From an uncultured Nitrososphaeraceae archaeon (GTDB taxonomy: Archaea > Thermoproteota > Nitrososphaeria > Nitrososphaerales > Nitrososphaeraceae), in assembly GCA_963837175.1 (NCBI GenBank), contig CAWIMJ010000022.1, positions 18,826 through 82,825 of the forward strand: a DNA stretch of 64,000 nucleotides, in the 5' to 3' direction. Positions 12,545 through 46,150 of this stretch are shown in pieces. Positions within the stretch are counted from its first letter, which is position 1. Each line of letters begins with the position of its first letter. The position numbers and the translations under genes are program-made. The notes under the pieces are model-generated. The model was given only the letters and a program-made list of their open reading frames with translations, searched no databases and had not been told where the DNA came from.

Positions 12545-15495
<2,951 letters not shown>

Positions 15496-15741
15496 AGTTT
15501 GCACTTTGCCTATGATAATATGTCTAAAACCTAACACTTTACGCGAACATATGTAAAGCAATCTTTTTTTTTTTATTTATTTATTTACCACTTAAAAACT
15601 TCTGTCGTTATTGCTAGATTATCTTTTCTAGCAATAATATGTGGCGTGATTTCTTGTTGTTGATCCTATACATGACGCTCATTGTAAACTTACGCTTACT
15701 ACATCCTTCATCCCTTGTCATATAACAAGGAATTGCATCAA

Positions 15742-15782
15742 TTTCTTTAGCGCTACTTCTTTTTCTTTAGCGCTACTTCTTT
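15742..15782. repeat. 20-bp tandem duplication in the rRNA ITS
   Basis: TTTCTTTAGCGCTACTTCTT occurs twice. Confidence 0.85.
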
Positions 15783-15893
15783 GCATTTTGATCATATAAA
15801 TGATGATCATCATCATCATCATTCATAGTTTGGTTGATTGATCACATCACATCAATCACAACCCTTTACACAAAGTAGTCCGGCCTCATTCAA

Positions 15894-17363
<1,470 letters not shown>

Positions 17364-22169: not shown

Positions 22170-23082
22170 GAGCCTATCCCAAAAATAGATAGGAATATAG
22201 CTCGTTTGTTTTTATTAGATTATCTGTTAAATATTTGACTAAAAGTAAAAAATATGTCAGAACAATCACATGTATTCCAGATCACTTATGGAATGAAATT
22301 AAAAATATTTTGCCAGATGAAAAACCAGAGAATACTATAGGTAGACCAGTTGTTTCATATAGAAAAGTACTTGATGGCATACTATTTGTTTTAAGAACTG
22401 GCTGCCAGTGGAAAATGTTACCCAAAGACTATGGATCTGGTTCTACTACATGCCATAGAAGATTTCAGCAATGGATACAATTAGGTATTTTCGATACACT
22501 ATGGTCTAGATTGCTAAAAATATATGATAACAAAAGAGGAATCAAATGGAACTGGCAATCACTTGACAGCAGCATCTCAATAAAATCGCCTTTAGGGGGG
22601 CGATGACTGGACATAATCCTACTGACAGAAGCAAATTAGGCAGTAAAAGACATATTTTAGTGGATAAAGAAGGTATTCCCCTATCTACTTTTATAACATC
22701 TGCAAATACTCATGATGCTACTGTTGCAATTGATACTGTTGATAGCATGGTTATCAAAAGAAGACAGTCATACAAACTAATTGATAAAAATAAGAGGAAG
22801 AAGCAAAATCTATGTCTTGATAAAGCATATCATTCCAAAGAAGTAGAACAAGAAATCATCAAAAGAGGATACATACCACATATACGACACAGAAGAAAGA
22901 AGAAAAACAATTCAAAAAGAAACATCCTGCAAGAAGATGGGTAGTAGAGAGAACAAATTCTTGGCATAACAGATTCAGGAAGTTATTTACTAGATATGAA
23001 AAGAAGGAGGAGAACTATCTTGGTCTTGTACAACTAGCAAGTAGCCTTATTGTTTATAGGAGGTCAATTTTGGGATAGGCTC
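22170..23082 (+). mobile_element. IS5-family element with split transposase (22235-22606, 22603-~23078)
   Basis: Terminal IRs GAGCCTATCCCAAAA/TTTTGGGATAGGCTC with TTA duplicated on both sides. Motifs LRTGCQW, DKAY and RWVVERT. G-run junction between the ORFs plus an extra frameshift near 22895. Confidence 0.95.
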
Positions 23083-23084
23083 TT

Positions 23085-23610
23085 AGTTGCAGTATCTCCA
23101 CCATAAGCAGAGTTAGCTGATTGAATGGGTGTAGGTTCTTTCCGTACTAAGGAAGGAAGACAATTAATTAGGCTCTTTAGTATATTGATATCTATATCAC
23201 AGATGGCGAGCTTGAACCTTGAAGGAAACTATTCTGATAGCGATACTGATTGCGATATTGACCGCAGCATCATTCCTGCTTTTGTCAATGACTCAGACTC
23301 CAGTGATACCGATTCGGCTGATAGCTGTCGGAATTTGGATCCTACTCGTTGCAGCAGTTCTGACAACAGTGTTATTTCTGACTCAAGAGCGCGAAGTGCT
23401 TTTGTGAGCCTTGTTACTTGACTGCTCTGATGCTGTTAGTCTCTGTTATCATATCCCTTATCGCTTTCTTTGCACCTGCTAACGATACATCATAATCAGG
23501 TACTGATTCTAATACTAGCGAGCGCAGCGCTGTTGCTATTCTCCCAAGCGACTCGCATGCTGCTGTTGAAATACTCTCTATTGCTAAACTTCGTAATGAT
23601 ATCTTGAATC
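23085..23610 (-). pseudogene. Degraded ~21-aa repeat protein, possibly a viral structural or fibre relic
   Basis: Minus-strand units RSLAIESIST..ESLGR / RSLVLESV / RALESEITLLSELLQR / RQLSAESVSLESESLTK / RSISQSVSLSE*, with a frameshift and stops. Confidence 0.45.
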
Positions 23611-23612
23611 TT

Positions 23613-25188
23613 CTATTTGTTCCCTAGCTCGAAGTACTTCAAGCACATTCTAAAGGCGTCAAAAACGTCGCTATGCGCCGTTCTTTCTTTGTCCAGCGCT
23701 CCGTCGTTCTCGTAAGCGGTTCTGATTGCTGTCACTAGCTTAGTAAAGTTCGGGTGAATTGCAATGTAGTGCTTATCAAGCAACATTTTGGCGTGGCCTA
23801 GCATGGCCTTGTGTTCCTTATTGGCACCACTTTGCCAAGCCAGTGATCTGGACTCCTAAAGCCAGAGCGCTTAGACCTTTCTATCACGTCCTCATAGTTA
23901 GGATCCTCTCCTATAGCAATCTTAAGCGCTCTAGTGAATGCAGAAGCTGAGCTGTCAACGTAAACTTTGGCGTCTGTATCAGCAATGATCCCATATTGAT
24001 ACATCAGATTTCTTGCTACGTCTACCATTACATTAAAGTTGGGACGATTGAATTCCTCTGCGTACAGGACTTGAATCAAACTACCAAAGTTTGAATCCGT
24101 GTATGTCTTTGTGATAGTAGTAGTCTTCTTTATAATAGGATCGGTAGTAGTAGTAGTAGTAGTAGTTGATACATTCAGAAGCTGACATACACAGAAGCCG
24201 CAAGCGCTAGAACCCCAACCTGGATCTATCGCCATAGCTTTCTTTGCAAAAGGATTGATTGCAGCCTTTGGTTTATTCGGATCGTAAAGCTGTGAACCTT
24301 TCTCTATTGCAGCCTGTATTGAGGATTCAGAAAAGGTAGTACCGATATGTCCACCATATTTCAGACAATATTCTCTTTGGAAGCTGGGAGAAGCCATAGC
24401 CTCTGCAATCTCTTCCTCGGAGTATATCTTGTTTAAGCCGTAAGTGTAATCTAGGTACAGCCGTTTATACAGGCACCTTTCTGCCGGTTCTAGCTCAATG
24501 CTCTCGAACAAGCCGCCTGGCCTGTTGGGTGTACTGACCATTACTATGTACGGATTTGACTTTGCTATGTACCGCTCCGAACGTCTCTGGCGTCCTGTTG
24601 CTGGCCTGGAGGATAGAAATCTGCCTCCTCGTTTAAGATAAAAGAGACATTGGCAAGCCCTCTCATTGCGTCCAGATGGTGACTTGGGTAGGCTTCTATG
24701 GTACAGCCGTTCAGCTCGATAACAGTCTCCTTACTGTCAAAATATATTGCAGCTTTAGGTTCAAAGAGCCGCTTCATTCTGTCTATAAGCGTTATAGCTA
24801 GGTCTATCCTTGGGCCTGTGACAACGCACATTTGAGACCCGGCAAGTACTTTATCTTTCAAAGCAAGCCACGCCATGTAACGCAGCATGAACTCGGTAAT
24901 CCCCAGGCCGGTTGACTTCTTTATGAATACGTGCTTATGCTTATCCAGTGCGTCATAGACTATCTTCTGATAAGGATATAGCGGCCGCTCGGTGTTACTC
25001 TTCACAGGTAGACCAATAATGTGGTTGAAACAGCAATCCCCTCTTGTCTTAATGTCCTCTGCCTTGTGTTGTTCTACGTTCCAAATCCAAAAAGGTTTAT
25101 GTTTTAATCTGTTAAAGAATCTTGTTTTATCGGAGTTGGATTCTGATTGTCTATAGTGAATTAGCTTTTGTAGTTCTTTGAAGGTCAT
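23613..25188 (-). pseudogene. Terminase large subunit-like gene in three frameshifted pieces
   Basis: Walker A-like KKSTGLGITE, Walker B-like ILNEEAD, motif III VSTPN, nuclease AIDPGWG and HSDVFDA. Frames join near 24575 and 23810. Confidence 0.85.
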
Positions 25189-25334
25189 CTTCTTGTGTTG
25201 TTACTAAGATAGAGTAATACTAGGAATGCTATAAAAATAATACTCTATTATTGTCTTCTTAGTTCATTCAGAAGGAAGGATGAAAAGAAAATAAGAAGAA
25301 AACGGCAAGCGGAGCTGAAATATATATAAATAAA

Positions 25335-25583
25335 TCAGGTTGCTTTGTGAGCCGCAATGTTCTTTATTGCTACATCAATGGGTTCATGAGGAAGTATAGG
25401 AATATGTTCTCTTGTCAAGTCAAAACTAATCAGATCATTGTTTTTCCCTTGGGATATTGCATGTATTTTATTAGATACTGTAGAAAGATTTGGAGTAGTA
25501 GCGAAGAGGTTAGAAAATAAAGTCACACCACTAAACATACAGGACGCTGTCCCGACCATTATTAACGCATATATTAGATTCAT
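25335..25583 (-). CDS. Small exported hypothetical protein
   Basis: 82 aa with hydrophobic N-terminus. Confidence 0.4.
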   Translation of the reverse strand: MNLIYALIMVGTASCMFSGVTLFSNLFATTPNLSTVSNKIHAISQGKNNDLISFDLTREHIPILPHEPIDVAIKNIAAHKAT

Positions 25584-25815
25584 TTTATTTTCTTCTTATA
25601 TTAAAGACTGATTTTTGGTATATAATAATTGAGGAACATATGCCTAAACAACGTATGTATTTCTTTAGTTTCTCAGCATGCTTATAGCTTGGATTTAGAG
25701 AATCGTACCACAAGTAAGAAAAAGAAGATGTATATTATACAAGTGTGTTTTTCCTCATTATACTCAATTGAAGAATAATGGAAAAAGATAGCAGGAGAAT
25801 AATGGAGAGATTTGG

Positions 25816-26502
25816 TTGCACGATGTTAGCGATAATAATGAAAATCACATTAACATTCCAGACAATAGGAGCCGCATCTATGATTACATTAAGAATAAAC
25901 CTGGATCCCATCTTAGGAAGATCAACAAGGAGCTTACCTTATCTATGGGAGATACTCAACACCATTTGAGAAATCTTGAAAAATCTGGGGTAGTAAAGTC
26001 AAAACGCATGGGTATCTACAAAGTTTACTACCCAGTTTCTATTTTGGAAGGAAGACAAGAATCTATACTATCTACACTTCAACAAGACACACCAAGGGAA
26101 ATAGTGATACATATAGTAGAACATCCTGGAACCACACAAAGTGAAATAGCCGATCATATGGGTTTCTCTTCACCAACGATCAATTGGCACATGTCGAATT
26201 TAATAGAAATTGGCTTGGTTAGAGTCCAGAAGGACAGACAGTTTGTAAAATACTACATAAAAGGAGACATCAAAGACATAACTAGTCTTCTAAAGTTATA
26301 CTACCCTACACTGTGGAGCAAATTATCATCTAGGTTAGATGACCTTTTCTTGGATTTATCAACAGCATCGCGATCCTACAGTGTAGGTGTTGCAAATGAG
26401 GATATAACCATCAATAGAAAAAAACAACAAGTAATTGAAAAAGAAGAATATGAAGATCAAGATAACGATGAAGACAAACATAAAAAAATAGGAGAACAGT
26501 AG
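25816..26502 (+). CDS. Double winged-helix transcription regulator (COG3398-like)
   Basis: IYDYIKNKPG.H..I...L and HPG.TQSEIA..SPTINWHM..L. Confidence 0.88.
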   Translation: MHDVSDNNENHINIPDNRSRIYDYIKNKPGSHLRKINKELTLSMGDTQHHLRNLEKSGVVKSKRMGIYKVYYPVSILEGRQESILSTLQQDTPREIVIHIVEHPGTTQSEIADHMGFSSPTINWHMSNLIEIGLVRVQKDRQFVKYYIKGDIKDITSLLKLYYPTLWSKLSSRLDDLFLDLSTASRSYSVGVANEDITINRKKQQVIEKEEYEDQDNDEDKHKKIGEQ

Positions 26503-26507
26503 CCAAT

Positions 26508-26966
26508 ATGAAATTTCGTCATCATCGTAACTATATCTCTACTTCTTCTTCTATGTTATTAGTTATAACAACAATAATCCTGCTTCTTTCAATTGCTTTC
26601 TTTCTCCTTTCTTCTAATCCATTAGTTATTGCTGAGCAGAATGGTGAAGATGGGAATGATTTATTGGATAAGGGAGATGTAGCTGATATATTTGATTTTG
26701 GAACTGGAATATTTGCAGCAATTCTCTTTGCTTTATCATTAAAAGCTTATAGGAATCTTAGGTCTAAGAAGCTGCTCTTTGTTGCAGGTGCATTTGGATT
26801 ATTTGCTATCCGTACAATAGTATCAAGACTTGATATTTTCATGCCTGAAATTGAATCTACTATTTTGGAGTTACTTTTAGCAGTTATGAGTTTCGCAGCC
26901 CTTGCTCTATTTTTCTTAGCTATCGTAAAGCGTGAGAAAATCAAGACCAAATACGTGCAAACATGA
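26508..26966 (+). CDS. Small multi-TM membrane protein coupled to the wHTH gene
   Basis: Four hydrophobic segments; AY....KKLLFV..AFGLF is shared with 31205-31624; 5-nt gap. Confidence 0.8.
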   Translation: MKFRHHRNYISTSSSMLLVITTIILLLSIAFFLLSSNPLVIAEQNGEDGNDLLDKGDVADIFDFGTGIFAAILFALSLKAYRNLRSKKLLFVAGAFGLFAIRTIVSRLDIFMPEIESTILELLLAVMSFAALALFFLAIVKREKIKTKYVQT

Positions 26967-27194
26967 ATAACTTCTACCACACTACCACTACTATTTTGTT
27001 CAACCCTATCTATTGTATTTGATATACTCATTCATTCGAGCCGTAGAAAAAGTAGCGTCGTTACTCAAATCTAAATAAAATGTTTACAATATATATTTAG
27101 ATTCACCACGATCCCAAGCGCTTAACATTTATCTAAGGCGAATTAGGCTAAGCACATAGTCGAAGTAGACGAAAAGATAATCACTGTTTTCATT

Positions 27195-27512
27195 GTGAAT
27201 CCAGATGGCAATATTTCTGATTTATTCATAGCAGTGGATGCAAATATAGATAATTCTATGGTTGAATCTGTAAGGTCAGCTCTAAATCTTAAATTTGAAG
27301 ATAAGCAAGATCAAACAACAAATCCCTCCTCATTAGGAGAACATCTTTGTGATATATCTGAATACGACAAAATAAGAATTATTAAAATATATGAGTCAAA
27401 TCGTTTAATAGTAGTATTAGCACAGAGCTGTACTTCTCCTGGAGAAGTTGCTGAAACAGTCTTAGGCTATCTGTATGAATCTGATGAAGAGCAACCAAAA
27501 AGTTTATTCTAA
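27195..27512 (+). CDS. Hypothetical protein (roadblock/profilin-like size and pattern)
   Basis: 105-aa ORF; the frame probably extends further upstream. Confidence 0.55.
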   Translation: MNPDGNISDLFIAVDANIDNSMVESVRSALNLKFEDKQDQTTNPSSLGEHLCDISEYDKIRIIKIYESNRLIVVLAQSCTSPGEVAETVLGYLYESDEEQPKSLF

Positions 27513-27728
27513 AATATCCTATGCTTTCTTTGTAAATCTTCAATGCATTAGACATTATTTATATATTCAAAAGGCTCGTCAATGATCTCTAATATTGGTT
27601 CTGCAAGATCTTCCAAATATTGAATGCCTATAGGATAAGTAAAACAATTCTATCTATCTAATATAACACAATGCAAACGATTAAGAGCTAATTCTGCATA
27701 TATATAATTGAGGTGATATTTCACAGAT

Positions 27729-28070
27729 ATGAGTGCTGCACATAATAGCGATAAACAATTTCTTTTATACCAGCTAAAGTGGATGGGAATATATATTGCG
27801 ATAGGTTTTGCCATATCTTTAGCTCTACCATTTCCTCTATCTTTGGTTGGAGCACTGGGAGCTTTCCTACTCTTAAATTTCATTAGAACAAGAAGAATAC
27901 TAAAAAGATCAGGTATTGATATGAAAGGATTGTTTAGGTCACTGTCATCCGCTTCTTCGCCTTCAATGTATGGTTCTAATCCACTAAAGTACTATTGTAT
28001 GAGCTGTGGGAAAGAACATAAGGAAATTGCATGTCCTAATTGCGGTTCAAAGATGAAAAGAGTAGGATAG
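27729..28070 (+). CDS. Membrane protein with C-terminal zinc ribbon
   Basis: Two TMs, then YCMSCG...CPNCGS. Confidence 0.85.
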   Translation: MSAAHNSDKQFLLYQLKWMGIYIAIGFAISLALPFPLSLVGALGAFLLLNFIRTRRILKRSGIDMKGLFRSLSSASSPSMYGSNPLKYYCMSCGKEHKEIACPNCGSKMKRVG

Positions 28071-28638
28071 ATATAGAAACAGAAACCGTACTCTTTCTAC
28101 TTAGTTGTGTGTGGGATCTTGTCAACCTATAGCGATTTCTACTCCTTTTACTCAAATTCAACGATGAGAGCAATAAAAACATCAATAATTACTTTCTAGC
28201 TAGTTATTAGTTTGCTGAACAAAGCCATCTAGCTATATCTCTAACTAACTGAATGAATTGTTCTATTGGTGCAGTAAGAATGAGTCACGTTAGATCAGGA
28301 ATTATCTTCAGGTCTCTTTCTTCAAGCAGCCAAGATCCACTGCAAGTTTTACTGTGATTGTTGTACATTTTTACATCTAATAAGTTCATTTAACTACTGT
28401 TGTTGTTGCTGTCGTTGGGATAGTTGTCGGTGTTGTTATTGTTGAACTTATTATATTATTTGATGAAAGAATTTTTGTTTCTTTTATTACTACTGCTTTC
28501 TTTTCTCTAGTAATAATATCATCTTCTTCTTTTTCTTTCTCTTTCCTATCTTTACTTTTATTATTAGTATCCTTATCGCTATTCTTGTTCTTGTTTCTGT
28601 TATTATTATTGCTACTACTATGATGACTGAAACGTAGA

Positions 28639-29511
28639 TCAGAGATACCTTTTCTCTAATTCCAAATATCTCTGTAAATCCACGAGTTTATTAAATTCTT
28701 TGAATGTAACCATCATTTTACGTCCTCGTTTTGTAGCGCCAGTCTTTCTTAACTCAGTAAACACTTCTCTTATGGCAAATGCTGCTGCATATAATCCTGA
28801 TAATGGAAATACTGCAATTCTATAGCCCATTTTTAATAGCTCATTCGCAGACAAATTAGGTGTTACTCCCTCTTCTATCATATTTGCTACTAATGGAGCA
28901 TCTATTTCATCAGCTATTTTTTTCAATTCCTCCACTGTTTTAGGAGCCTCAACAAAGATAACATCTGCGCCCATTTTACGATATTCTTTGCCTCTTTTGA
29001 TAGCTTCATCTATACCAAGTGGAGCGCGAGCATCTGTTCTTGCAACAATGATAAAATCCTTGCTTTTACGGGCTTCTAATGCTGCTTTTAATTTTGAAAT
29101 ATAATCATTTTTAGAAATCACATCTTTTCCCATCATATGTCCGCATCTTTTAGGCCATACTTGATCCTCTAGAAAAATACCATTGGCTCCTAGATTTTCT
29201 AGATCACGAACGAGTCGCCACACGCTTAAAGGATTGCCATATCCGGTGTCAACATCAACTAGAACTGGAACATTTACCGAACGTATGATCCTGCGAGCAT
29301 TGTCTACAGTTTCACCTGCATTGAGAAATCCATAGTCGGGCATTCCTAGAAGAGTAGCAGCAGAACCATATCCAGTTTGAAACATTGCGTCAAAGCCCAC
29401 TTGTTCTGCAATTCTAGCGCTTAACGCATCGAAAACTCCTGGCAATACTATGATTCTTTTCTTATCCTCAATTTGTTCTCTTAATGGTATTTTGATAGTT
29501 GATTTTTGCAT
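28639..29511 (-). CDS. Isocitrate lyase/PEP mutase family enzyme (PrpB-like)
   Basis: DVDTGYG, EDQVWPKRCGH, ARTDA and ANMIE motifs. Confidence 0.93.
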   Translation of the reverse strand: MQKSTIKIPLREQIEDKKRIIVLPGVFDALSARIAEQVGFDAMFQTGYGSAATLLGMPDYGFLNAGETVDNARRIIRSVNVPVLVDVDTGYGNPLSVWRLVRDLENLGANGIFLEDQVWPKRCGHMMGKDVISKNDYISKLKAALEARKSKDFIIVARTDARAPLGIDEAIKRGKEYRKMGADVIFVEAPKTVEELKKIADEIDAPLVANMIEEGVTPNLSANELLKMGYRIAVFPLSGLYAAAFAIREVFTELRKTGATKRGRKMMVTFKEFNKLVDLQRYLELEKRYL

Positions 29512-29894
29512 TCAATCATAAAAATACAGCAGAAATTATTAAATAGTTGTTCTATTCTTTATTCAGCTAGCTTTTATTCATCGTTTCTAAATTAGGCACT
29601 ACAGAATCTCTAACATAAATGGATACCGATTTTACTCCATAATATTTTGCTTGAAATTAATCTTTCATTTAGGAATTACTATTTATAATTCATAGTTTCA
29701 TTTTCAATTGCAAAAGTCAAAAAATGGATATATAATTCAGAGAGATATCGAAGATATATAAATATAGACAACAACTTATCATTCATTTTTTCTATTGTCG
29801 TCCCATCATACAATTAGAAACATTTTACTTGTCTTTAACAAAAAATAATTTCTTTATCATTGCATTAATGGCGTCAAACAGAACAATATCAATG

Positions 29895-29923
29895 TAATAA
29901 TAATAATAATAATAATAATAATA
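29895..29923. repeat. (TAA)n microsatellite
   Basis: About nine consecutive TAA units. Confidence 0.9.
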
Positions 29924-29990
29924 TAAAAAATAAAACTTGATATTATCTTAATTTTGGGAATAGTGATGTTGCAGGAACTCGTACTTTCAC

Positions 29991-30272
29991 TTATTGTTTT
30001 CTTATTGATGCTTTTGTTTTTTTTCTTTCCACTATTTCAAATGAACCATCTAGTTGTTTTGTCACATTTATGTTACATACTCGACATTCATAGTATTTTA
30101 CTGGGGGATCATGACTAATTGAACCATTTAACCATATCATTATTGCACCGCATATAGGACAATTCATCGTCATATTCCAATTTTGTATATGACTATTAAT
30201 ATGTTTTTTATTAACTTCTAAAAAATGAATAAACCGGTCATAAGAATTATTATCAAAACCTAAGAAACTCAA
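29991..30272 (-). CDS. Small zinc-ribbon protein
   Basis: CPICG...YECRVC; the true start is probably an internal Met. Confidence 0.7.
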   Translation of the reverse strand: MSFLGFDNNSYDRFIHFLEVNKKHINSHIQNWNMTMNCPICGAIMIWLNGSISHDPPVKYYECRVCNINVTKQLDGSFEIVERKKTKASIRKQ

Positions 30273-30659
30273 GCTATAACTTGGAGAACATCATAGAACA
30301 AAAAAAGTAGAGACTATCTACAGAAAAAGACGGGTAGATTCCTAAACGTATTTTGTTAAGCATTAGAATTATAGTCTTGTTTTGGTCTCAAAATAGATAT
30401 GAGATTTGGCATATAAGTAGAAGAATCAAAATTATTCAATCTTTTGACTGCTAGCGATTATAATCTAAATCAGGTAACAGTCTATCAAGTGATCTGTTTT
30501 CATTTCATTTCTGCATCATAGTTACCGATTGCCTGACTTACCGCATTTTTAAGTTACTCAGTCTAACTTGGGTGTAGTAAACTTAAAAATAACTTCATAC
30601 TACAATAATGATAATGAAATAACATTGAATCTTAATCTTAATATAGATCTTTTATATCA

Positions 30660-31208
30660 TTACAACTCTTCCATCATTTCTGTATAATTATTCACAACTT
30701 TGTCTACAAAACTCTCTTGGTATTTGTATAATATATTCGCAATTGCCTCTCCATCTACAACTCTATAAAGCTGACGCTTCTCTCCAGGTATTATTGATAT
30801 TATTCCAGCATCCCTAAGCCGTTTCAGATACCATGAGACGGTAGATGGAGCTTTATTCACATGGTCAACTATTTCATTAAAGATACATGAATCATGTTGC
30901 AGTATGAATATCGCCATCTTCCTTGTAACCTTATTTCTGAAATAACCAATAATATCTGATTCTTCCTTTGGAATATTGACAATATAGTATCTCGTAACTC
31001 TGTTATTGTATCTATCGATCCTTATCTTACCCAGTCTTTCAAGTATTGTCAAATGATAACTCAATACTCCATTTTTTAATCGAGTTAAGCGTAAAAGCTC
31101 CTTGTATCTGATCCCTGGAGTTTTATAAATATTTTCTAAAATAACGCTTTTGGTATCGGGCTTGTTGATGTTTCTTGAAGTTATTTCTTCCTGTCTATAT
31201 AATATCAC
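30660..31208 (-). CDS. Double winged-helix transcription regulator (COG3398-like)
   Basis: IYKTPGIRYKEL..GVLSYHL and FNEI...APSTVSWYLKRL. Confidence 0.88.
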   Translation of the reverse strand: MILYRQEEITSRNINKPDTKSVILENIYKTPGIRYKELLRLTRLKNGVLSYHLTILERLGKIRIDRYNNRVTRYYIVNIPKEESDIIGYFRNKVTRKMAIFILQHDSCIFNEIVDHVNKAPSTVSWYLKRLRDAGIISIIPGEKRQLYRVVDGEAIANILYKYQESFVDKVVNNYTEMMEEL

Positions 31209-31624
31209 GATTTATTATTCACCCTAACAAATCCAATGCCAAATAAAGTAAGCATTACAAATAGAATTAAGTGTGGTATTTCTATATTAACTACGGGAAT
31301 TATTATATTTGTATCCTCTATTTCCATCATGGAATAAGATAGGTATAGGATTTCAATTACCACAAGTGAGAAGAAACCAAGGGTCATAAATAATAGCCTG
31401 GAACTACTCTTTCTCTTGTATGCAAGCGTTGATACAACGCTTAGAAAAACTGCTATAATGAGGCTTACTATATGAAGAAAAATGTGATAAATAATATTTG
31501 TATGTGTGATGTTTGGAAGAATTACAGGTATAGCGAGTATAGCAGTTATAGATACAGATATAATTAAAAATAATTTATATTTACTAGCTGTAATATTCTG
31601 TAAAGATGCCTTTCCTGACTGCAA
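31205..31624 (-). CDS. His-containing 4-TM membrane protein overlapping the wHTH gene
   Basis: THTNIIYHIFLH, AYKR..SRLLFMTLGF and IPHL; 4-nt overlap with the downstream regulator. Confidence 0.82.
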   Translation of the reverse strand: MQSGKASLQNITASKYKLFLIISVSITAILAIPVILPNITHTNIIYHIFLHIVSLIIAVFLSVVSTLAYKRKSSSRLLFMTLGFFSLVVIEILYLSYSMMEIEDTNIIIPVVNIEIPHLILFVMLTLFGIGFVRVNNKS

Positions 31625-31660
31625 TGCCCATATTAGTAATATTTGAACTAATTTAAATAC

Positions 31661-31678
31661 TATGGTACAAATATCGAA
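31661..31678 (-). promoter_or_regulatory. Conserved 18-bp promoter motif, copy 1
   Basis: TTCGATATTTGTACCATA-GTA-TTTAAAT upstream of 31624. Confidence 0.7.
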
Positions 31679-32208
31679 GTTAACATTTAATTATTAGTAA
31701 AAATAACAAAAATTTGCATCAGATAGATTTTCCTTTATACTAAGAATCGCTACCGTTGTTATGAGGAGATCCAACATCTTTTCTTGTAAAATATATATTT
31801 TGTTAGCAGTAGAAAGAACTGAGTAAAATAACTTTACAATAACGGCCTATAATACTGTAGTATTATATTATATGTGTCTCTCTCACATATGCTTCTGTAC
31901 ATAAGTAATAAAGCTCTATAGTGCATCTTAATTTATAAACACAGTTAATTATAATATTAATAGTATAATAGAAAAATATTAAATTAAGTATGCTTTTGTT
32001 GCATTCCGAAGCTCATAATTACCATTACCTTATTGTGAAGTTAAGATGGATATCGCATTAACTACCTATTTTTACATAATAATTATTTTACCCAGTTCTA
32101 TCTACTGCTACAAAATATATATTTCACAAGAAATAAAAAATTCTTTTTTATTTATGCTGTATATATTATCTTAACGGGGATGATGAACATCAAAGAGAAA
32201 AGGACTAA

Positions 32209-32679
32209 AGCTCACGAATTATCAAGATTAATGATAATCAATCCAAGATCTTAAAACATATTGCTAAAACTCCAGGAGTTAGATATAGAGAGCTTTTAAG
32301 ATTAACAAGGCTAACCAACGGTGTACTTTCATATCATCTGAAAATTCTTGAGGAATCAAGAAGTATAAAAGTTAATAGAGAGGGGATTAAAATGACAAGG
32401 TATTATCCAAAAAATATCAAGACTAAAGAATTTCATGTTATAGCCTATACCAGAAATAGTACGGCTAGACAGATAATACAATTATTGCTTAAACAAGGCC
32501 ATTCTACTTTTAAAGATATTGTAAAACACACAAACAAAGTACCATCCACAATATCATGGCATCTGAAAAGACTTGAGAACGGGAAAATTATCTCAGTTAG
32601 TCACAAGAAATTTCATGTATATAGAATAAGGAATAAAGAGAAAGTAGGCGAAATAGTTGCCAAATATACAAATATATAG
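32209..32679 (+). CDS. Third COG3398-like wHTH regulator; 5' end disrupted or non-ATG start
   Basis: The frame is open from 32209 (ILKHIAKTPGVRYRELLRLT..GVLSYHL), a paralog of 30660-31208. In-frame TAA at 32206. Confidence 0.75.
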   Translation, partial: SSRIIKINDNQSKILKHIAKTPGVRYRELLRLTRLTNGVLSYHLKILEESRSIKVNREGIKMTRYYPKNIKTKEFHVIAYTRNSTARQIIQLLLKQGHSTFKDIVKHTNKVPSTISWHLKRLENGKIISVSHKKFHVYRIRNKEKVGEIVAKYTNI

Positions 32680-33127: not shown

Positions 33128-33913
33128 TTATTGAGGAGCTTTAACTGTTACCTTAAAAGAGTGATTTAGATCATATGCCCCATTTCTTTGTACAATAATC
33201 TTGATATCCCATTCACCAGGCTGGCTAATATAACCTCCCTCAGTGCCATATACTCCATTTTCAAGTTTATGCAAATTTGCAACAATTGGTCCTATTCCAG
33301 CTTGTTTGTCATTAAATTGCATTATGACATTCTTTATATTGGTAGGAGCCTTGCCTGATGCATCAGTAAGTGTTACATTGAATTTATTATTTATACCAGC
33401 ATACAATGGACTTATTTTATATTGCAAAGTTATATTATCGATCGTAACTTGATCGGAGAATGTATTATTTTTATTTGATAAGTTAGTTTGAGCAGCTGCT
33501 GCCTGTGCAGGTTTTATGGTAAATACATAAGAACCTTTTGTTATGTGTCCGTCATCACGAGAGAATGCAAGCCAGGAGACAGTATAAACTCCAGGTGTAA
33601 GTTTATTCTTATCTAGTGTAACAGTAGCTTGTCTACCATTTTGCCCTGTAATTGCATAATCATTATTATCTACCCGATTATTTTTGGCATCTGTTACATG
33701 TATATAGCTTGCTTTTGGTTCTGGCCTTTCTGAAAATGATATTACCACTTTTGTTGGCAGAGATCCATTTTGTACAATAATAGAATTTATTGCTGGAGAA
33801 TATGACACAGGAGATGCGTGACCATAAACATTACTTGAAAATGAGCTCACAATAACAGGAACTAGAAGCAATGTGATTATTGCATGACTTAGTGAAAAAT
33901 AATTTTTTTGCAT
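33128..33913 (-). CDS. copC: CopC domain plus YtkA/FixH-like Ig domain
   Basis: VYG|HASPVSYSP, FSE and YTVSW...DDGH motifs; C-terminal GIGPI..G.Y..QPGEWDI. Confidence 0.88.
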   Translation of the reverse strand: MQKNYFSLSHAIITLLLVPVIVSSFSSNVYGHASPVSYSPAINSIIVQNGSLPTKVVISFSERPEPKASYIHVTDAKNNRVDNNDYAITGQNGRQATVTLDKNKLTPGVYTVSWLAFSRDDGHITKGSYVFTIKPAQAAAAQTNLSNKNNTFSDQVTIDNITLQYKISPLYAGINNKFNVTLTDASGKAPTNIKNVIMQFNDKQAGIGPIVANLHKLENGVYGTEGGYISQPGEWDIKIIVQRNGAYDLNHSFKVTVKAPQ

Positions 33914-33947
33914 ATGAGATAAATATGTATATCTCAGTCTTAAACTT

Positions 33948-33965
33948 TATAGTACATCTCTCGAA
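33948..33965 (-). promoter_or_regulatory. Conserved 18-bp promoter motif, copy 2
   Basis: TTCGAGAGATGTACTATA-AAG-TTTAAG upstream of 33913. Confidence 0.7.
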
Positions 33966-34229
33966 TATTGAATAAAAGATATTATAAAAATTATAAAATG
34001 GATAATGTACTATCATCTTTCTATCTCTGCAAAAAGGTACCTGATGCTCTTATCATGCAATATATATTAAAAAACATGCTGAAGTAATTATCATTATTTT
34101 GCTGTTGCTGCAATGATAATTGGACTAATTTTATGGAATAGAATAAGATAAAAAAACTCATTAGAGCAGCATCATACACCCTACAATTCTTATTAAATAA
34201 AAAGACAACAGACTGAATATATATCTAAA

Positions 34230-34952
34230 TTAAGTACTTTTGCGAGAAAATGCCACGACTGCTATAACAATTCCTGCCACACCAACTCCCATTCCCGTTA
34301 TACCTATCAGGAAGGATTTATCTGCTGTCTTTTTCACATCTTGAAATGATTTCTGTATATTTGCATCATTTTTAGCTAAGGTATCTATATCACCTTTAGT
34401 AACATCAATATCGTTTGTTAATTGGCTGAGGATTCTTTCAACTTCTGCTCCAATGCTAGTGGCAGGAGTATTAGTATTAGTACCCTCACCAGTATTGCCA
34501 GAATCTGGAAAAGAGAGCTTTTGCTTACTTTCTACATCATCTAGGGGTATTTCAGCATTGACAATACTCTGTCCTTGTAATGTTCCATTCAATACCAAAC
34601 TATAAGATCCTAGTCTTGTTGGAATCATCTCAGCTTGATATAGTCCTGCTGACTGTTCTGATGGTTTAAAATCAAGAGTCTTTGTTACTCCACCGTATTT
34701 TACCAAGATATACATTTCAGCTAAGGCATTTCTTACTGGTGTAGAATTGCTCTCAGTTCCTTTGTTTACTTGAACAATAGCATTATTTATTTCACCAACA
34801 AGTGATGGCTCGTTACTCCAACCTACCTCCACTGTAAAATTACCAAATGTCTTTGATATGTGAGCATATACAGGAACCTGAGTACTAGATGCAAAAACAG
34901 TAATCAGCAATAACACAGCAATGATCATCAAGGGTATTATAATAAATTTCAT
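34230..34952 (-). CDS. Membrane-anchored exported protein with mature N-terminal His
   Basis: VYA|HISK, VGWSNEP, coiled-coil stalk, C-terminal TM; paralog of 45449-46117. Confidence 0.85.
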   Translation of the reverse strand: MKFIIIPLMIIAVLLLITVFASSTQVPVYAHISKTFGNFTVEVGWSNEPSLVGEINNAIVQVNKGTESNSTPVRNALAEMYILVKYGGVTKTLDFKPSEQSAGLYQAEMIPTRLGSYSLVLNGTLQGQSIVNAEIPLDDVESKQKLSFPDSGNTGEGTNTNTPATSIGAEVERILSQLTNDIDVTKGDIDTLAKNDANIQKSFQDVKKTADKSFLIGITGMGVGVAGIVIAVVAFSRKST

Positions 34953-35085
34953 TTTAGTATTGAAAAATACATATTGTTATATTATCATTTACGAAGAATC
35001 TTGATACTAATCTTTATTGTCTTTCATCGAAAATATACTATAAAAGGTAAAAATGCTATAAACTCAATACGCTATATACATTATT

Positions 35086-38000
35086 ATGAGAAGACATTTT
35101 GGAAGGTTACATTTCCATCATATCTTATGTCCTGTTATAGTGATTGCAGTATTATCAATTTTAATGTTAATTTCTTTACCATCCATACCTAAATCATATG
35201 CTCATGCTTTTGTAATGAATAGCAATCCATCGCCTTCACAAACTTTAGAGTCACCACCGACAAAAGTCGAAGTTTACCTTAGTGAACCAGTTGATCTAAG
35301 ATACAGTAAACTGAGTGTTATAGGTCAAGATGGAAAGCAGATAGACAACAAGAATGTACAATATGTTAACGGGGATCAAACTGCATTAACTGTTACTCTT
35401 CCCCATGATATTAAGGATGGATTGTACACAGTCTCTACAAAAATGCTCTCTCAAATAGATGGTCATGTTACAGACAATGCTTTTGTATTTGGAGTAGGTG
35501 AGGCAGAAATTCCAAATAATATTTCAAGTGAAGGTCTACAGTCTTCTTCTTCTCAACTATCAATACTTGATGCAATTGCAAGGTTCCCTGCATTGGTCGG
35601 TCAAGTCATGATTGTTGGTGCAGCATTTGCAAATCTATGGTTATGGAGACCTATGTCTAAAATTAATTGGTTGAAAAGTGCTTTTGCACAAACAAGGAAT
35701 AGAGTTGACAGGAGTTTAATAAAATTGATAGTAGTTGGTTCTGTTATACTAGTTTTATCTGATTTCGGCATGATTTATGTTCAAGCCTATTCCATCAATG
35801 CGGGAATAGCTGATGCTATTGCCACGAAGTTTGGCACTATATGGATTGTTAGAACTTTAGAATCTTTTGTAGTACTTGTTATTGCAGTAGTTATACACCT
35901 AAAGTTAAAAAAAACAAATTCTACAATTCCATCTAAGCAAGATATTTTGAGTATATTAGTAGTTGGCCTTGCAATGCTTGCGACTACTACTTTGATTGGA
36001 CACAGCTCTGCTGTTGGTAATGTAATACCAATTGCAATAGATTTTATGCATAATTTAGCAGCCTCGATATGGATTGGTTCTGTTATTTACCTCGCCTTTG
36101 TTGTAGTTCCAAAAATAAAGCAAGCACCTCTCGAGGAACACGTAAAAGCTTCAGTATTGTCAATCATAATTCCAAGATTTTCAACTATCCCGGTAGTGAT
36201 ACTAGGAATAATAGTAATTACAGGACCATTTCTGTTATACATTCTCGAAACTAATCTTGACTTAATTTTAGCATCTTTGTACGGAAAAGCGCTTATAGCA
36301 AAATTAGTACTCGCTGCAGTAATGATCAGTATCGGAGGATATAATCAGACAGTAATATACAGACAAGCCCTGAAGGTTGCTGCTATTGCTATGACTACTT
36401 CATCATCATCAACATCAATAACAACATCACCACCGACAAGAACTCTTAGTACTAGTAATAGAAGCAGCTCACTGAAAAGAAGACAAGGAGCACCCAAGCA
36501 AACACAAAATAACAATGACAAGGAATTGCCATCATCTTCCTCTTCCTCCTCCTCTTCTAATTCATACAGACATTATATTTCAAAGATGTCTACTGTTTCA
36601 AAATTAAACACGAGTACAAAGATTGAAGCAATTGTCGGAATCCTTCTACTTGTAGCTGTTGCTGTATTGGTTAATACAGGGTTGCCAGCAAGCGAGTTCC
36701 AGAACCAACAACAGATAATACAACAAAAGATACAAGCAGAGGCTCAGACTTTGTCCTCAAAAAATATAAAATACAACACATTTACATCTACAAAGTTCGT
36801 AGAAAATGGCACTAGAATCAAGCTATCAATAGATCCGTTTACTCCAGGTAATAACAATTTCAAAATATCATTTTTAGATCAAGACAGAAATCTTTTAGAT
36901 ATAAAGTCTGTGAAATTGAAACTAACCCAAATAGAACAAGGTATAGGTCCAATTGAAGTAGACACTAAACAGATTTCTAAAGGAATATTTTCTGCTAATG
37001 CTGCTTTTGGTTTATCTGGAGAATGGAACGTACTGGTCGAAGCATTTCAGAATAAGGCAAATTCGCTCAATGTTGTTGCAACCTATAATTTATTTGTGAA
37101 ACCCACGCTAGATCAAATGAAGTTTAATGTAAGGGAATTTAGAATAACTGGTAGTAATAATGATAGCCAACCTTTGTACCCTCTCTATGATAATAGTCGT
37201 AACGTAATATGGGTTGGAGATACAGTAATTGATAGCGGTAGAATATTTGAATTTAGCCTAAATTCAAATAAATTTACAGAACATAATATCAATGATACTA
37301 GTATTGTAACTGTTATGGCTTTGGACCATAATAATCAAATATGGTATGCTGACCCTTTAATGAGACACCTAGGACATTATGATCCAAATACCTATACAAA
37401 CCAAATATACAAAATTCCAAGTCCAGATTTCAGTCCATCTGGTATAGCCATAGATAGGAGTGATAACGTATGGCTTACATCTGCAAACACTAGTAGTATA
37501 TTGAGGTTTAACACTCAAGCTAAGAACTTCACAACCTTTCAGTCTCCAACTACAAATATAACTGCTGCATTAGATATTATGATAGATCCTTCAGATCAAA
37601 TATGGATTGCAGAAGGAGTAGGAAAACTAGCCAATATAGATCCAGCTAACAACTTTAATGTTACTGAATATTCTCCAAAAGGCAAAAACAATACCCTAGT
37701 TAATCCTATAGCATTGCTTGCTGATCCTATTACCGGCGATATTTATATATCGGAACATGATGGATATGCAGTATCAGTTTTCAATCCAGTAATAAAGACA
37801 TTTAAAGAATATCTACCTCTTAATTCAAATGGTAAGCCATTTGGAATGGCACTAGATAGCAATAAAAATTTGTGGATTGCTGAGCAAACTATAAACAAAA
37901 TAGCAATAATAGATCCCCGCACTGGTGAACATAAGGAAGTAACAATACCTTCACCAAGTCCATTCATCCAATGGCTAACTTCAGATTCCAGAGGGAACAT

Positions 38001-38298
38001 ATGGTTTGCAGAGCAACGAGGAGATTCCCTTGGTGTTATAACAATCAATGCTAATCCTTTACAATCTGGCTCCCCAGCAGGAGATACTACTGCTAATAGT
38101 TTAAGTAATAACAATCAATCCAGCAGTAATGGATATAATGGTTTTATTCCTCATCAATATGGTTTTAATTATACTGAAATCGTTGGTCCTGCAGTAGCTG
38201 CAGGTATAATAGCCAGTGCATTATTTTATACAAAAAGCATTACTGATTTAAGAAATAGCATGAAGCAAGCAAATAAAGGCGTTAACAGCAAGTGTTGA
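35086..38298 (+). CDS. CopC-CopD-YtkA-like-beta-propeller (Vgb/NHL-like) fusion with C-terminal TM
   Basis: SYA|HAFV...DGH, GHS and HNLAASIWIG, GEWNV, and repeated P.G.A.D...N.W.. blades. Confidence 0.9.
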   Translation: MRRHFGRLHFHHILCPVIVIAVLSILMLISLPSIPKSYAHAFVMNSNPSPSQTLESPPTKVEVYLSEPVDLRYSKLSVIGQDGKQIDNKNVQYVNGDQTALTVTLPHDIKDGLYTVSTKMLSQIDGHVTDNAFVFGVGEAEIPNNISSEGLQSSSSQLSILDAIARFPALVGQVMIVGAAFANLWLWRPMSKINWLKSAFAQTRNRVDRSLIKLIVVGSVILVLSDFGMIYVQAYSINAGIADAIATKFGTIWIVRTLESFVVLVIAVVIHLKLKKTNSTIPSKQDILSILVVGLAMLATTTLIGHSSAVGNVIPIAIDFMHNLAASIWIGSVIYLAFVVVPKIKQAPLEEHVKASVLSIIIPRFSTIPVVILGIIVITGPFLLYILETNLDLILASLYGKALIAKLVLAAVMISIGGYNQTVIYRQALKVAAIAMTTSSSSTSITTSPPTRTLSTSNRSSSLKRRQGAPKQTQNNNDKELPSSSSSSSSSNSYRHYISKMSTVSKLNTSTKIEAIVGILLLVAVAVLVNTGLPASEFQNQQQIIQQKIQAEAQTLSSKNIKYNTFTSTKFVENGTRIKLSIDPFTPGNNNFKISFLDQDRNLLDIKSVKLKLTQIEQGIGPIEVDTKQISKGIFSANAAFGLSGEWNVLVEAFQNKANSLNVVATYNLFVKPTLDQMKFNVREFRITGSNNDSQPLYPLYDNSRNVIWVGDTVIDSGRIFEFSLNSNKFTEHNINDTSIVTVMALDHNNQIWYADPLMRHLGHYDPNTYTNQIYKIPSPDFSPSGIAIDRSDNVWLTSANTSSILRFNTQAKNFTTFQSPTTNITAALDIMIDPSDQIWIAEGVGKLANIDPANNFNVTEYSPKGKNNTLVNPIALLADPITGDIYISEHDGYAVSVFNPVIKTFKEYLPLNSNGKPFGMALDSNKNLWIAEQTINKIAIIDPRTGEHKEVTIPSPSPFIQWLTSDSRGNIWFAEQRGDSLGVITINANPLQSGSPAGDTTANSLSNNNQSSSNGYNGFIPHQYGFNYTEIVGPAVAAGIIASALFYTKSITDLRNSMKQANKGVNSKC

Positions 38299-43847: not shown

Positions 43848-45356
43848 TTAATGATTAGCTTGCAAAGAATCTAATGTTTTCTTTATCTCTCGTTTACTCC
43901 TTACAAAAGATATAATACTTCCCGTCAAAACTGCTGCCGATAAAATGATAACCAGAATAGCAAACGCGTCAAAAGATGGCATTTCATTTTTAGTAGTAGT
44001 AGAAGTAGCTAATCCGTTTAAATTAGAATTTTCTGCCATTGACACAGATGGTGGCGAAGTTATTGTAAGAAACGAAGTTATAAAGAGAATACCCATACCT
44101 ATAAATGATTCAATCCTGATAGTCTTACTAAATTTTGCAAATGGATCGGCTTGTAGTGAATTGCTGCCGCCAGATGTAGTTGCTGCTGAACTACGCTTGT
44201 TATCATTTGATTTTTTTCCCCCTTTACCAATTTTAGCAACTAATACAAAGCTATCATGGAGTCTAAATTGATGATAACCACCAAGGATAACCATAGGCAA
44301 AATAGCAGACAGCTTAATTATTAGAACGTTCCCATACATGGTATCAAAAATTGCTCCGACTGTATGAAGATGGATCCAAGCCATATATAGTCCTGTTACA
44401 CCAATTATACCAAGTGAAATTGTAGCTATGAGAGAAAAATATGGAAGTAATACAGCAAGAAAATAAGTATTTCTTGTTTTATTAGTTTCATATTGCTGGT
44501 TTACAGGTTCAGTTAGATTTATTGTTGATCTTATTGTGACTAAAAGTATGACAGAAATATAAAATACGCCTCCAACCCAGATAGATACTGCCATAAAATG
44601 CAGCCAGTTTATTGAGATGGCTAATGACGGAAGGAATGATAATGCGGCACTATGGCTGACTACACTGTTAGAGAAGATGCTTATTGCGCCTGACAGTATT
44701 ATAACATATAATAATACTATAGAAAGACTCAGATTTCTTTTCCTTTGTTTACTGTACGTATGATGCTCTTCTTCGGTTGTCCTTTTAATTTTCTTCTTTT
44801 CCAAAATGTAATACAATATAGAGGATACGACAATTATCGATGAAGTTATAATCCTTAATATCCAAACTGGTCCCACAGAAGTAGTGGTCAATATTGTAAA
44901 AGTGGTACTGACATCCAAGCCTAATTCTGAAGACATACTGATTGTTTGTAGATATATCAAAGAGCTTGCGGTAACCAGTATAGTTAGACTACATACAACA
45001 AGTAGAATGAACAATCTCCTTAAAGGCTGCAAACTACTACTACTATTATCCACGGGCACGTTATTTTTGTAATTTGGTTGAATTCTACTCCGTAGTACTC
45101 TGTGTAGAAATACATGATTAAATACTCCTCCTACTATGGCTGCCTGGGATATCATCATTGGTGCTTTCAGTAAAGCATCGTAAGTGGAGGTAACCGACTC
45201 TATATGAGTAGAGTCAAGGCCATCCTGAGCGTGAACTGTAGTAGGTAGGAAACTCGTAGGCATCAAAATAAAGGATATTATAATAACTAATATTCCTGCT
45301 ATTATCATAAAATTGTTCATCATGAGAGTTTTTTTTCGATGTGTTTCAGTTTCCAT
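43848..45356 (-). CDS. copD: CopD-family copper uptake membrane protein
   Basis: SHSAA, WLHFMAVSIWVGG, TGLY, YG..LIIK and GGYHQ motifs. Confidence 0.88.
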   Translation of the reverse strand: METETHRKKTLMMNNFMIIAGILVIIISFILMPTSFLPTTVHAQDGLDSTHIESVTSTYDALLKAPMMISQAAIVGGVFNHVFLHRVLRSRIQPNYKNNVPVDNSSSSLQPLRRLFILLVVCSLTILVTASSLIYLQTISMSSELGLDVSTTFTILTTTSVGPVWILRIITSSIIVVSSILYYILEKKKIKRTTEEEHHTYSKQRKRNLSLSIVLLYVIILSGAISIFSNSVVSHSAALSFLPSLAISINWLHFMAVSIWVGGVFYISVILLVTIRSTINLTEPVNQQYETNKTRNTYFLAVLLPYFSLIATISLGIIGVTGLYMAWIHLHTVGAIFDTMYGNVLIIKLSAILPMVILGGYHQFRLHDSFVLVAKIGKGGKKSNDNKRSSAATTSGGSNSLQADPFAKFSKTIRIESFIGMGILFITSFLTITSPPSVSMAENSNLNGLATSTTTKNEMPSFDAFAILVIILSAAVLTGSIISFVRSKREIKKTLDSLQANH

Positions 45357-45448
45357 TTCTCATACTTAAGTAATACACATGCTGAATGATAAAAAAGGAA
45401 AAATTAAGTTCTCTTTGTGATTTCATGATTTTTGCTCATTTACTCTTT

Positions 45449-46132: not shown

Positions 46133-46150
46133 TATGGTACAACTATCGAA
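46133..46150 (-). promoter_or_regulatory. Conserved 18-bp promoter motif, copy 5
   Basis: TTCGATAGTTGTACCATA-TAT-CTTAAATA. Confidence 0.7.

Follow-up and report, generated by a model that had tools for sequence, protein, structure and literature searches.

Conserved pairing of small four-helix membrane proteins with tandem winged-helix regulators in an archaeon of the family Nitrososphaeraceae: a candidate membrane copper-sensing module

To our knowledge, few transmembrane signalling routes have been characterised in archaea. Among described systems, the nearest model by function for the genes studied here comes from Bacillus subtilis, where, as Ellermeier et al. reportedly found in 2006, the membrane immunity and signal protein SdpI sequesters the ArsR-family autorepressor SdpR. 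We analysed a stretch of 64,000 nucleotides (the window) from an uncultured Nitrososphaeraceae archaeon (GenBank assembly GCA_963837175.1, contig CAWIMJ010000022.1, positions 18,826 to 82,825), in which two gene pairs lie between positions 25,816 and 32,679. Both pairs are members of a widespread archaeal two-gene module, formed by a gene for a small protein with four transmembrane helices (M) and a gene for a single-chain regulator with two winged helix-turn-helix (wHTH) domains of the HVO_0163 type (A). For one of them, M2-A2, we propose that M2 senses metal in the membrane and thereby controls its partner A2, which would regulate its own operon and govern copper-acquisition genes; we give this reading a probability of roughly 0.5.

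As in SdpI-SdpR, a polytopic membrane protein is encoded together with an ArsR-like autoregulator, and the kinase-free holding of the regulator at the membrane is what we propose, by analogy, for M2-A2. The arrangement typical of SdpI-SdpR, with membrane protein and regulator in one autoregulated operon, is found in the M-A pairs as gene adjacency and as an element in the operons' own promoters, which would make them autoregulated. The M-A pairs do not belong to the same family, since no sequence relation was found: A1 and A2 scored 45.5 and 22.8 bits against the SdpR model NF033789 (cut-off 100), and no SdpI match appeared for M among the families listed. Furthermore, the M-A module belongs to an archaeon, its regulator combines two wHTH domains in one chain, and a metal is proposed as ligand instead of a peptide toxin.

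Closer in sequence are the uncharacterised haloarchaeal pairs of DUF7471 (PF24283) proteins with HVO_0163-type (PF24266) regulators. They share with the window pairs both families, a tight adjacency, an aromatic-basic cytoplasmic loop and, in 4 of 12 plasmid loci, the presence of plastocyanin-like, SCO, NosL, NosD or metal-transporter genes within 1.5 kb. They differ in two aspects: M1 and M2 remain under the Pfam cut-offs of DUF7471 and DUF7521, respectively, and the His-rich motif of the haloarchaeal DUF7471 proteins is HH-x2-EH, placed where the last transmembrane helix starts on the outer side, whereas M2 carries H-x5-H-x3-H on the second (TM2). According to a preprint, the strongest up-regulation in a qarA mutant is that of the Haloferax pair HVO_B0192/B0193, a transmembrane protein and a regulator for which DUF7521 is named. 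The operon MM2440-MM2441 of M. mazei presents a gene for a hypothetical protein overlapping that of an ArsR regulator, and is likened to M-A by layout only. The M-A pairs would be a variation on an established type of signalling, built from functionally uncharacterised families: the regulators are of the HVO_0163 type, and the membrane proteins are distantly related to DUF7471 and DUF7521. No description of the M-A pairing as a sensor module was found in the literature searched on these families, on the N. viennensis (NVIE) genes discussed below and on archaeal ArsR regulators and membrane sequestration.

The genes concerned are the following:

A1, 25816-26502, plus strand: single-chain tandem-wHTH regulator of 228 amino acids, TTG start (PF24266, E 1.3e-21; HTH_24, E 4.9e-15)
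M1, 26508-26966, plus strand: membrane partner of 152 amino acids with four transmembrane helices, starting 5 nucleotides past the end of A1
A2, 30660-31208, minus strand: tandem-wHTH regulator of 182 amino acids, GTG start, second gene of the M2-A2 operon (PF24266, E 1e-9; HTH_5, E 1.2e-11)
M2, 31205-31624, minus strand: membrane protein of 139 amino acids with four transmembrane helices, TTG start, overlapping A2 by 4 nucleotides
A3, 32181-32679, plus strand: third tandem-wHTH paralog, divergent from M2, without membrane partner, with a frame break near 32212 in the assembly

An earlier note on this DNA, made from the sequence alone, had described two tightly coupled pairs in opposite gene order, and the A1-M1 pair with its gap and the M2-A2 pair with its overlap bear this out. 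The motif that it saw in both membrane proteins is real, although the spacing between AY and (K/R)LLF is of six residues and not four. It also pointed to a third wHTH paralog; A3 exists, but instead of a single wHTH domain the frame-broken gene encodes both. Four regulators exceeded the gathering score of 31 bits for PF24266 (HTH_HVO_0163_N), with 76.8 bits for A1, 38.7 for A2, 45.1 for the A3 frame and 44.9 for A4, a paralog from another contig. The second wHTH, of the ArsR/MarR type, is present in the same chain, with HTH_24 and HTH_5 above the cut-off in A1, A2 and A3. A1 relatives also carry PF24266, and A1 has a conserved C-terminal helical tail with an acidic end.

The genome contains additional members outside the window. 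As a whole (3.81 Mb in 58 contigs, 91% complete), it has five A-type genes, four of them with an adjoining M gene: besides the window pairs, there is a near-identical second copy of pair 1 on contig C12 (M1 97% identical), and a fourth pair on contig C10, in which A4 (190 amino acids) and M4 (106 amino acids) overlap by 1 nucleotide. A1 and A2 are 24% identical (BLASTP E 2e-14), and A2 and A3 are 41% identical across the second half. The pairwise similarity between M1 and M2 is marginal (E 0.001); comparison of the alignments of 30 M2-type and 24 M1/M4-type sequences with hhalign gave a probability of 95.9% and E 5.7e-9 over 80 columns, from TM2 to TM4, and because of this profile match we consider both families homologous. 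The duplication of pair 1 includes a small upstream gene (window 22235-27000 versus G000:C12:44406-47585, locus L001) and seems to be of recent date, either segmental or mobile. Fragments of an IS4/5-family transposase are located at 22235-22944, and the content of guanine plus cytosine (GC) at 22-26 kb is 0.38-0.39, compared with about 0.31 nearby.

The association of both genes is maintained in related genomes. Within the same taxonomic family, 55 of 60 other genomes contained M2 relatives; with its own genus included, they were present in 17 of 18 genera. Of 29 loci taken from these other genomes, 26 have an A2 homologue as the next gene after M2, on the same strand; the exceptions are L017 and L018, from one genus, and L032, at a contig end. 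In L017 and L018 the M2 gene (L017:994-1377 and L018:2027-2410) has a DUF6659 protein (4.8e-11) upstream and a secreted protein downstream. Twenty loci with 8-kb flanks all presented M2 followed by A2, ten of them being loci already counted and ten new (L050-L059). The total of unique loci is 36 of 39, or 35 of 38 if L026, which comes from the unpublished genome G035, is left out. Proteins of the M1/M4 type were present in 33 of the 60 related genomes and, counting the own genus, in 13 of 18 genera, and a homologue of A1 or A4 lay directly upstream on the same strand in every one of the 29 loci (28/28 without L071 of G035), three of which have fragmented genes. Conserved pairing had been set beforehand as a test on which the proposal could fail, and both series, 36 of 39 for M2 followed by A2 and 29 of 29 for A followed by M1/M4, sustain it.

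The module could also be found outside the phylum. A tblastn search of A1 against plasmids yielded 56 matching records, nearly all haloarchaeal, and 12 loci, picked for their spread across genera and not at random, were inspected. In six, a DUF7471 protein (98-106 bits) was encoded beside the PF24266 regulator; three contained a related small transmembrane protein, sub-threshold for DUF7521 and DUF7471; one had an unrelated protein with two transmembrane helices, another had no membrane neighbour, and in the last one (Methanomethylovorans) the regulator itself bore N-terminal transmembrane segments. The nine paired loci were arranged on the same strand in seven cases, convergently in one and divergently in one, and all nine have in common an aromatic-basic loop past TM2. 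The exceptional regulator, on plasmid pMETHO01 of Methanomethylovorans hollandica (L093:1752-2459), is a PF24266 tandem-wHTH protein with two hydrophobic N-terminal segments, and would therefore be a membrane-anchored form. When 150 genomes of the phylum, all from other families than its own, were searched with PF24283, only 2 matched, the Pfam model being too centred on haloarchaea for a survey of Nitrososphaerota.

The histidines of M2 are conserved as well. The earlier note had distinguished a membrane protein with HxxxxxHxxxH and a further His from a His-poor one with acidic loops, and both descriptions hold. M2 presents H41-x5-H47-x3-H51 plus H118, together with a basic cytoplasmic loop (Y69-R71-R76), and M1 is without a His cluster of this type; its external loop is acidic, and its cytoplasmic loop, with AY...KLLF, is basic. 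Conservation of the histidines was the second test fixed in advance, and the four residues proved invariant in 30 M2-type sequences with identity down to 35%, as did E91. Among the best 120 of 330 M2 relatives, H41 was kept in 95%, H47 and H51 in 100%, H118 in 99%, and E91 and E115 in 99%. At position 38, 94 of 121 relatives have His and the window protein has Asn. Lys/Arg residues occur only at the two termini and in the TM2-TM3 loop, with nine in the inside segments and none in the outside ones, and for this reason the cluster is predicted to be in the outer half of the membrane, with both termini inside. The AlphaFold2 model of M2 consists of four long helices, with a predicted local distance difference test (pLDDT) of 78.3.

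In the M1/M4 family the His and Glu residues of M2 are missing, and the invariant residues are the AY of the cytoplasmic loop and the AF..F after it, not polar residues of the transmembrane helices. M1 scored 22.4 bits against DUF7471 (gathering score 27); 14 of 24 members of its family match this model at E<=1 and many relatives have a precomputed PF24283 assignment, which indicates, at the level of profile scores, that M1 is a distant relation of DUF7471 and not a formal member. M2 scored 17.2 bits against DUF7521 (PF24365; gathering score 27), with 15 of 30 relatives at E<=1 and a best value of 0.0016.

Other sensor families gave sub-threshold matches over the TM2-loop-TM3 region in the 30 M2 family members: MHYT (PF03707) in 8, 7TMR-DISM_7TM in 14 and MASE3 in 6. 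The MHYT domain is made of repeated transmembrane pairs bearing the MHYT motif, with six transmembrane helices, and has been proposed to bind copper. M2 resembles these families in having His near the outer membrane face, and differs in scoring below their gathering scores (16.1 bits for MHYT, gathering score 21), in its four predicted helices and in having no output domain. In a Foldseek search of the PDB with the M2 model there was no match at E<=0.001, generic helical bundles being the best at 0.41, and a profile sequence search of the PDB gave none at E<=1. In the ESM Atlas, values of at least 0.9 were reached only by clusters of the own lineage; clusters of DUF8036, DUF7521, DUF5985 and DUF7471, at 0.75-0.83, are leads only.

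Regarding the partner, the AlphaFold2 model of A2 (pLDDT 83.4) contains two well-defined wHTH units, with residues 172-182 below 50. The conserved C-terminal helix (170-181) was predicted as a helix and remained unplaced in the model, with pLDDT about 40. By Foldseek, the whole model matched the tandem winged-helix chains SarS (PDB 1p4x; E 6.6e-4) and ScpB (E 2.0e-4), and the second domain superposed on SmtB, CadC and CzrA at 1.5-2.4 Å over 80-86 columns. In this respect A2 is similar to SarS-type and ArsR/SmtB proteins; it differs from them in the low whole-chain template-modelling scores (0.29-0.35) and in the lack of a conserved metal site. We know of no membrane partner for SarS-type or ArsR/SmtB proteins. 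The ligands of the ArsR/SmtB family are a Cys pair on helix alpha3 or an Asp/His/Glu set on alpha5. Such a classical site was not conserved across 30 A2-type sequences, in which the sole invariant His was H52, in the first recognition helix. Scores against the ArsR/SmtB model NF033788 were under the cut-off of 55 bits: 49.9 for A1, 32.7 for A2 and 34.2 for a 95-amino-acid open reading frame of A3. A 1:1 complex prediction from the A2 and M2 family alignments gave scores of 0.00 and 0.00, which weigh neither for nor against binding.

Directly beside the TATA box of M2-A2 and that of a second operon of the window, p222-CopD, as well as those of CopCD and exported-protein genes elsewhere, lies a bipartite element, TT[C/A]GATA-N3-GTACCA. 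In the window the relevant features are:

31661-31678, minus strand: 18-nucleotide element of the M2-A2 promoter, putative operator (24.7 bits, the top score genome-wide; three mismatches to the published motif)
31652-31659, minus strand: TATA-like box of the M2-A2 promoter, 2 nucleotides after the element and about 27 before the start codon (read from the sequence; putative promoter)
46133-46150, minus strand: second strong copy of the 18-nucleotide element (24.6 bits, second best in the genome), with a TATA-like box 2-4 nucleotides later
43848-46117, minus strand: operon of p222 (45449-46117; paralog of p240, 29% identity, E 7e-9) and CopD (PF05425, E 2.3e-17), candidate regulon member
25695-25709, plus strand: bipartite element of pair 1, of the form TTAGAGA-N3-GTACC, about 107 nucleotides upstream of the A1 start (pattern scan)

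The published motif is the one described for copper limitation in N. viennensis, where it is reported 35-70 nucleotides before start codons (PMC7785015). In the window, the only match to this motif near the pairs is the element on the strand of M2, 37-54 nucleotides ahead of its start codon. With up to three mismatches allowed, the window contains three matches versus 2.9 expected; because this count is not significant, we put weight only on the position of the element and on its conservation across genomes. The 18-mer was conserved at -41 to -69 of M2 in 26 of 33 loci across genera.

A position weight matrix (PWM), built from the sites of M2 loci, was scanned over the 3.8-Mb genome and gave 24.7 bits before M2, 24.6 before p222-CopD, 22.5 on contig C39 and 17.3 or less for the rest. 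The C39 site (G000:C39:59578-59595; L102:3001-3018) falls within a glycosyltransferase-like open reading frame with no gene start downstream, and is unexplained or spurious. The exact pattern TT[CA]GA[TG]A-N3-GTACC occurs seven times in the genome, where 2.05 occurrences are expected; A1-M1, its duplicate, M2-A2 and p222-CopD account for four of the seven, with one upstream of each. In A1-type operons, TT-A-GATA-N3-GTACCACAA was found upstream in 9 of 10 loci, the window included, with the same two boxes and one base changed, and in A4-type operons a conserved k-mer scan detected a GTACC-containing element in only 5-6 of 18 loci. Since the A-type regulator is the sole product common to all the element-bearing operons, we assign the element to it; an asymmetric site of two boxes would also fit a single chain with two unlike wHTH domains. 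In archaeal promoters the B recognition element (BRE) lies beside the TATA box. This is also the place of the element, so that a protein bound to it would block or recruit transcription factor B (TFB).

In 20 related loci, 32 sites scored 14 bits or more for the element; 15 of them precede M2-type genes, 2 CopCD or p240, 9 a family of exported proteins of about 280 amino acids and 1 a Met/His-rich secreted protein, and 5 have no clear gene. The exported proteins are helical, of about 275-355 amino acids, with a mature end H-T-F-x-G-D-E-S-A and no Pfam family; the element is located 31-35 nucleotides upstream (in one case, with an overlap of 9 nucleotides). They are encoded at L041:14269-15093, L042:3297-4133, L043:2371-3204, L047:6231-7112, L049:9437-10510, L050:13837-14739, L052:4149-5078, L058:6416-7264 and L059:9462-10358. 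The own genome has one homologue, on contig C50, without the element. This family may comprise copper-binding members of the regulon.

Several copper-related genes are found next to the M2-A2 pair:

33128-33913, minus strand: exported protein with a CopC domain (PF04234, E 1.4e-15)
34230-34952, minus strand: p240, exported membrane-anchored protein, divergent partner of CopCD and found together with it in related loci; without Pfam family
35086-38298, plus strand: CopC-CopD fusion with a beta-propeller-like C-terminal region (CopC, E 1.7e-14; CopD, E 6.9e-9; Vgb_lyase, E 4.6e-22)

CopCD, p240 or both were present within 8 kb of M2-A2 in 7 of the 20 loci, in varied order and orientation; in L054, CopCD is located 79 nucleotides upstream of M2-A2 on the same strand. 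In N. viennensis, PMC7785015 reports four adjacent genes induced under copper limitation: NVIE_014280, an ArsR family regulator (log2 fold change +2.47), NVIE_014290, a hypothetical protein whose gene bears the motif (+2.72), NVIE_014300, CopC/D (+2.68), and NVIE_1457, an exported protein (+2.80). The hypothetical gene with the motif and the gene of the ArsR regulator are co-transcribed there, next to CopC/D and an exported protein, and L054 has the same gene order. The paper differs from our analysis in that its accessible part does not present the hypothetical protein as a conserved His-cluster membrane partner and does not propose a sensor pair. In another study NVIE_014290 was called a 'putative cation channel protein' and was up-regulated in biofilm (PMC12448741). 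The earlier note had supposed that the His-rich protein senses copper for the adjacent island. The link with copper stands on synteny, on the shared element and on the published motif and expression; the strong sites, however, precede M2-A2 and p222-CopD and not the adjacent CopC and CopCD genes (33128-38298).

Two additional observations concern these proteins. The long C-terminal region of the CopC-CopD fusion matches Vgb_lyase, SGL, beta-propeller families and YtkA, an unusual extracellular extension of a copper-uptake protein. In addition, the CopC protein (CopC261), p240 and p222 have His as the first mature residue after the predicted signal peptide, if cleaved as predicted, like CopC-type copper sites.

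We propose that the module could work as follows. In the outer half of the membrane, M2 would bind metal through its invariant His and Glu residues, and occupancy of this site would alter the cytoplasmic loop. This basic loop would contact A2, most likely through the conserved C-terminal helix of the regulator, and depending on the metal would hold A2 at the membrane or free it. Freed A2 would then bind TT[C/A]GATA-N3-GTACCA at the BRE position, abutting the TATA box, and from there control its own operon and the copper-acquisition genes, that is, the CopD and CopCD operons and exported proteins beginning with His. If A2 is a repressor, the induction under copper limitation implies that apo-M2 would be the form that holds it. 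Pairs 1 and 4 would use the same mechanism with inputs other than copper.

Some observations weigh against this proposal. No M-A fusion protein was found among the best 150 of 501 M1/M4 relatives (51-233 amino acids). L017 and L018 keep M2 and its promoter element without an adjoining A gene, and A3 has no M gene, so both types of protein can exist unpaired. The element is missing in 6 of 33 M2 loci, no element of at least 11 bits was detected in the intergenic regions of the adjacent CopC and CopCD genes (33128-38298), and what ties the element to the A proteins is co-occurrence. Cys108 of A2 is semi-conserved (25 of 30 A2-type sequences), with a His nearby, and consequently A2 may sense metal directly. 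Finally, NVIE_014290/NVIE_014280 is apparently the M2/A2 counterpart, judged by gene order, annotation and motif; its induction of about 6-fold, together with CopCD, is what would be expected of an uptake component.

The main rival of a sensor is an effector encoded with an ordinary repressor. M2 would be a copper channel, an importer subunit or a membrane chaperone that uses its His/Glu cluster, and A2 an autoregulating repressor of the ArsR type that senses the signal by itself; both would be co-transcribed as in arsRB or cadCA, with no contact between them. The co-induction of the apparent counterpart with CopC/D (PMC7785015) and the two loci with M2 and no adjoining regulator are explained as well by this arrangement as by a sensor, and it also suits the label of putative cation channel (PMC12448741), the semi-conserved Cys108 and the superposition of the second wHTH on SmtB, CadC and CzrA. 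Nevertheless, the pairing persists across three diverged subfamilies and two phyla even though M1 and M4 are without the His cluster, the residues conserved throughout the superfamily sit in the cytoplasmic loop and not along a polar transmembrane path, and A has neither a conserved metal site of the ArsR/SmtB type nor a score above the NF033788 cut-off. We consider this explanation less probable than a sensor, although a serious competitor.

A different possibility is that the M-A pairs are mere targets of another copper regulator, which would be the one binding the element, and that their own role lies, for example, in envelope or membrane stress. CopR/S-like proteins and CopT are discussed as candidate regulators by Reyes et al. 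(2020; PMC7785015), and the M2 loci without the element, as well as the sequence basis of the link between element and regulator, would agree with it. This seems improbable to us, because 9 of 10 loci with the paralogous A1-M1 operons have the element upstream as well, because all operons that carry it share a single product, the A-type regulator, and because the asymmetric site would suit a chain with two unlike wHTH domains. Very improbable, in our opinion, is that at least pair 1 is cargo of a mobile element, an immunity or addiction module of the SdpI/SdpR kind, and not a housekeeping sensor. The duplication of pair 1 and its flanking gene on C12, the transposase fragments with the elevated GC content, and the many haloarchaeal relatives on megaplasmids (the search covered plasmids only) speak for it; the occurrence of the A-M1/M4 pairs in 33 of 60 related genomes and 13 of 18 genera at varied loci, the fact that no toxin-like partner gene was seen, and the absence of SdpI matches for M among the first 25 of 36 and the first 25 of 39 families speak against it.

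As for the frame break of A3, an open reading frame for a wHTH with an ATG start lies inside the gene (32392-32679, plus strand, 95 amino acids). The stop-to-stop frame 32209-32679 encodes both wHTH domains and has no ATG, GTG or TTG start, and the ATG-ATG at 32181 is one frame off from it. The orthologues of two genomes of the same genus are intact (166 and 168 amino acids), and a contig of the DNA run X1 has one additional G behind 32212 that joins both frames; in view of these, the break of one nucleotide would be strain-specific decay, as in a pseudogene, or an assembly error. Contigs from RNA libraries span the M2/A2 junction (31073-31258, run X15) and part of A3 (32400-32560, run X17); such contigs are not proof of transcription or of a single transcript, and the uncovered parts are uninformative. 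Elsewhere in the window, a GC-rich block at 12527-17363 (0.48 versus about 0.31) corresponds to the rRNA operon, with the large-subunit gene at 12527-15500 and the small-subunit gene at 15894-17363, both on the minus strand.

In a broader sense, the four-helix sensor with its tandem-wHTH regulator could be a general kinase-free device for transmembrane signalling in Nitrososphaerota, Halobacteria and Methanosarcinales, and M2-A2 the long-sought copper sensor of soil ammonia oxidisers, setting their copper-acquisition regulon through an asymmetric two-box operator at the BRE and TATA box; this wider view is tentative and may well not hold in full. Through these pairs, the DUF7471 and DUF7521-like families are tied to the HVO_0163-type regulators as one recurrent archaeal module. 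Ammonia-oxidising archaea rely on copper enzymes, and M2-A2 offers a concrete and conserved candidate for the sensing of this metal, which specifies a membrane protein with a His/Glu cluster, a partner regulator, an 18-nucleotide element and a small predicted regulon, and can therefore be tested experimentally.

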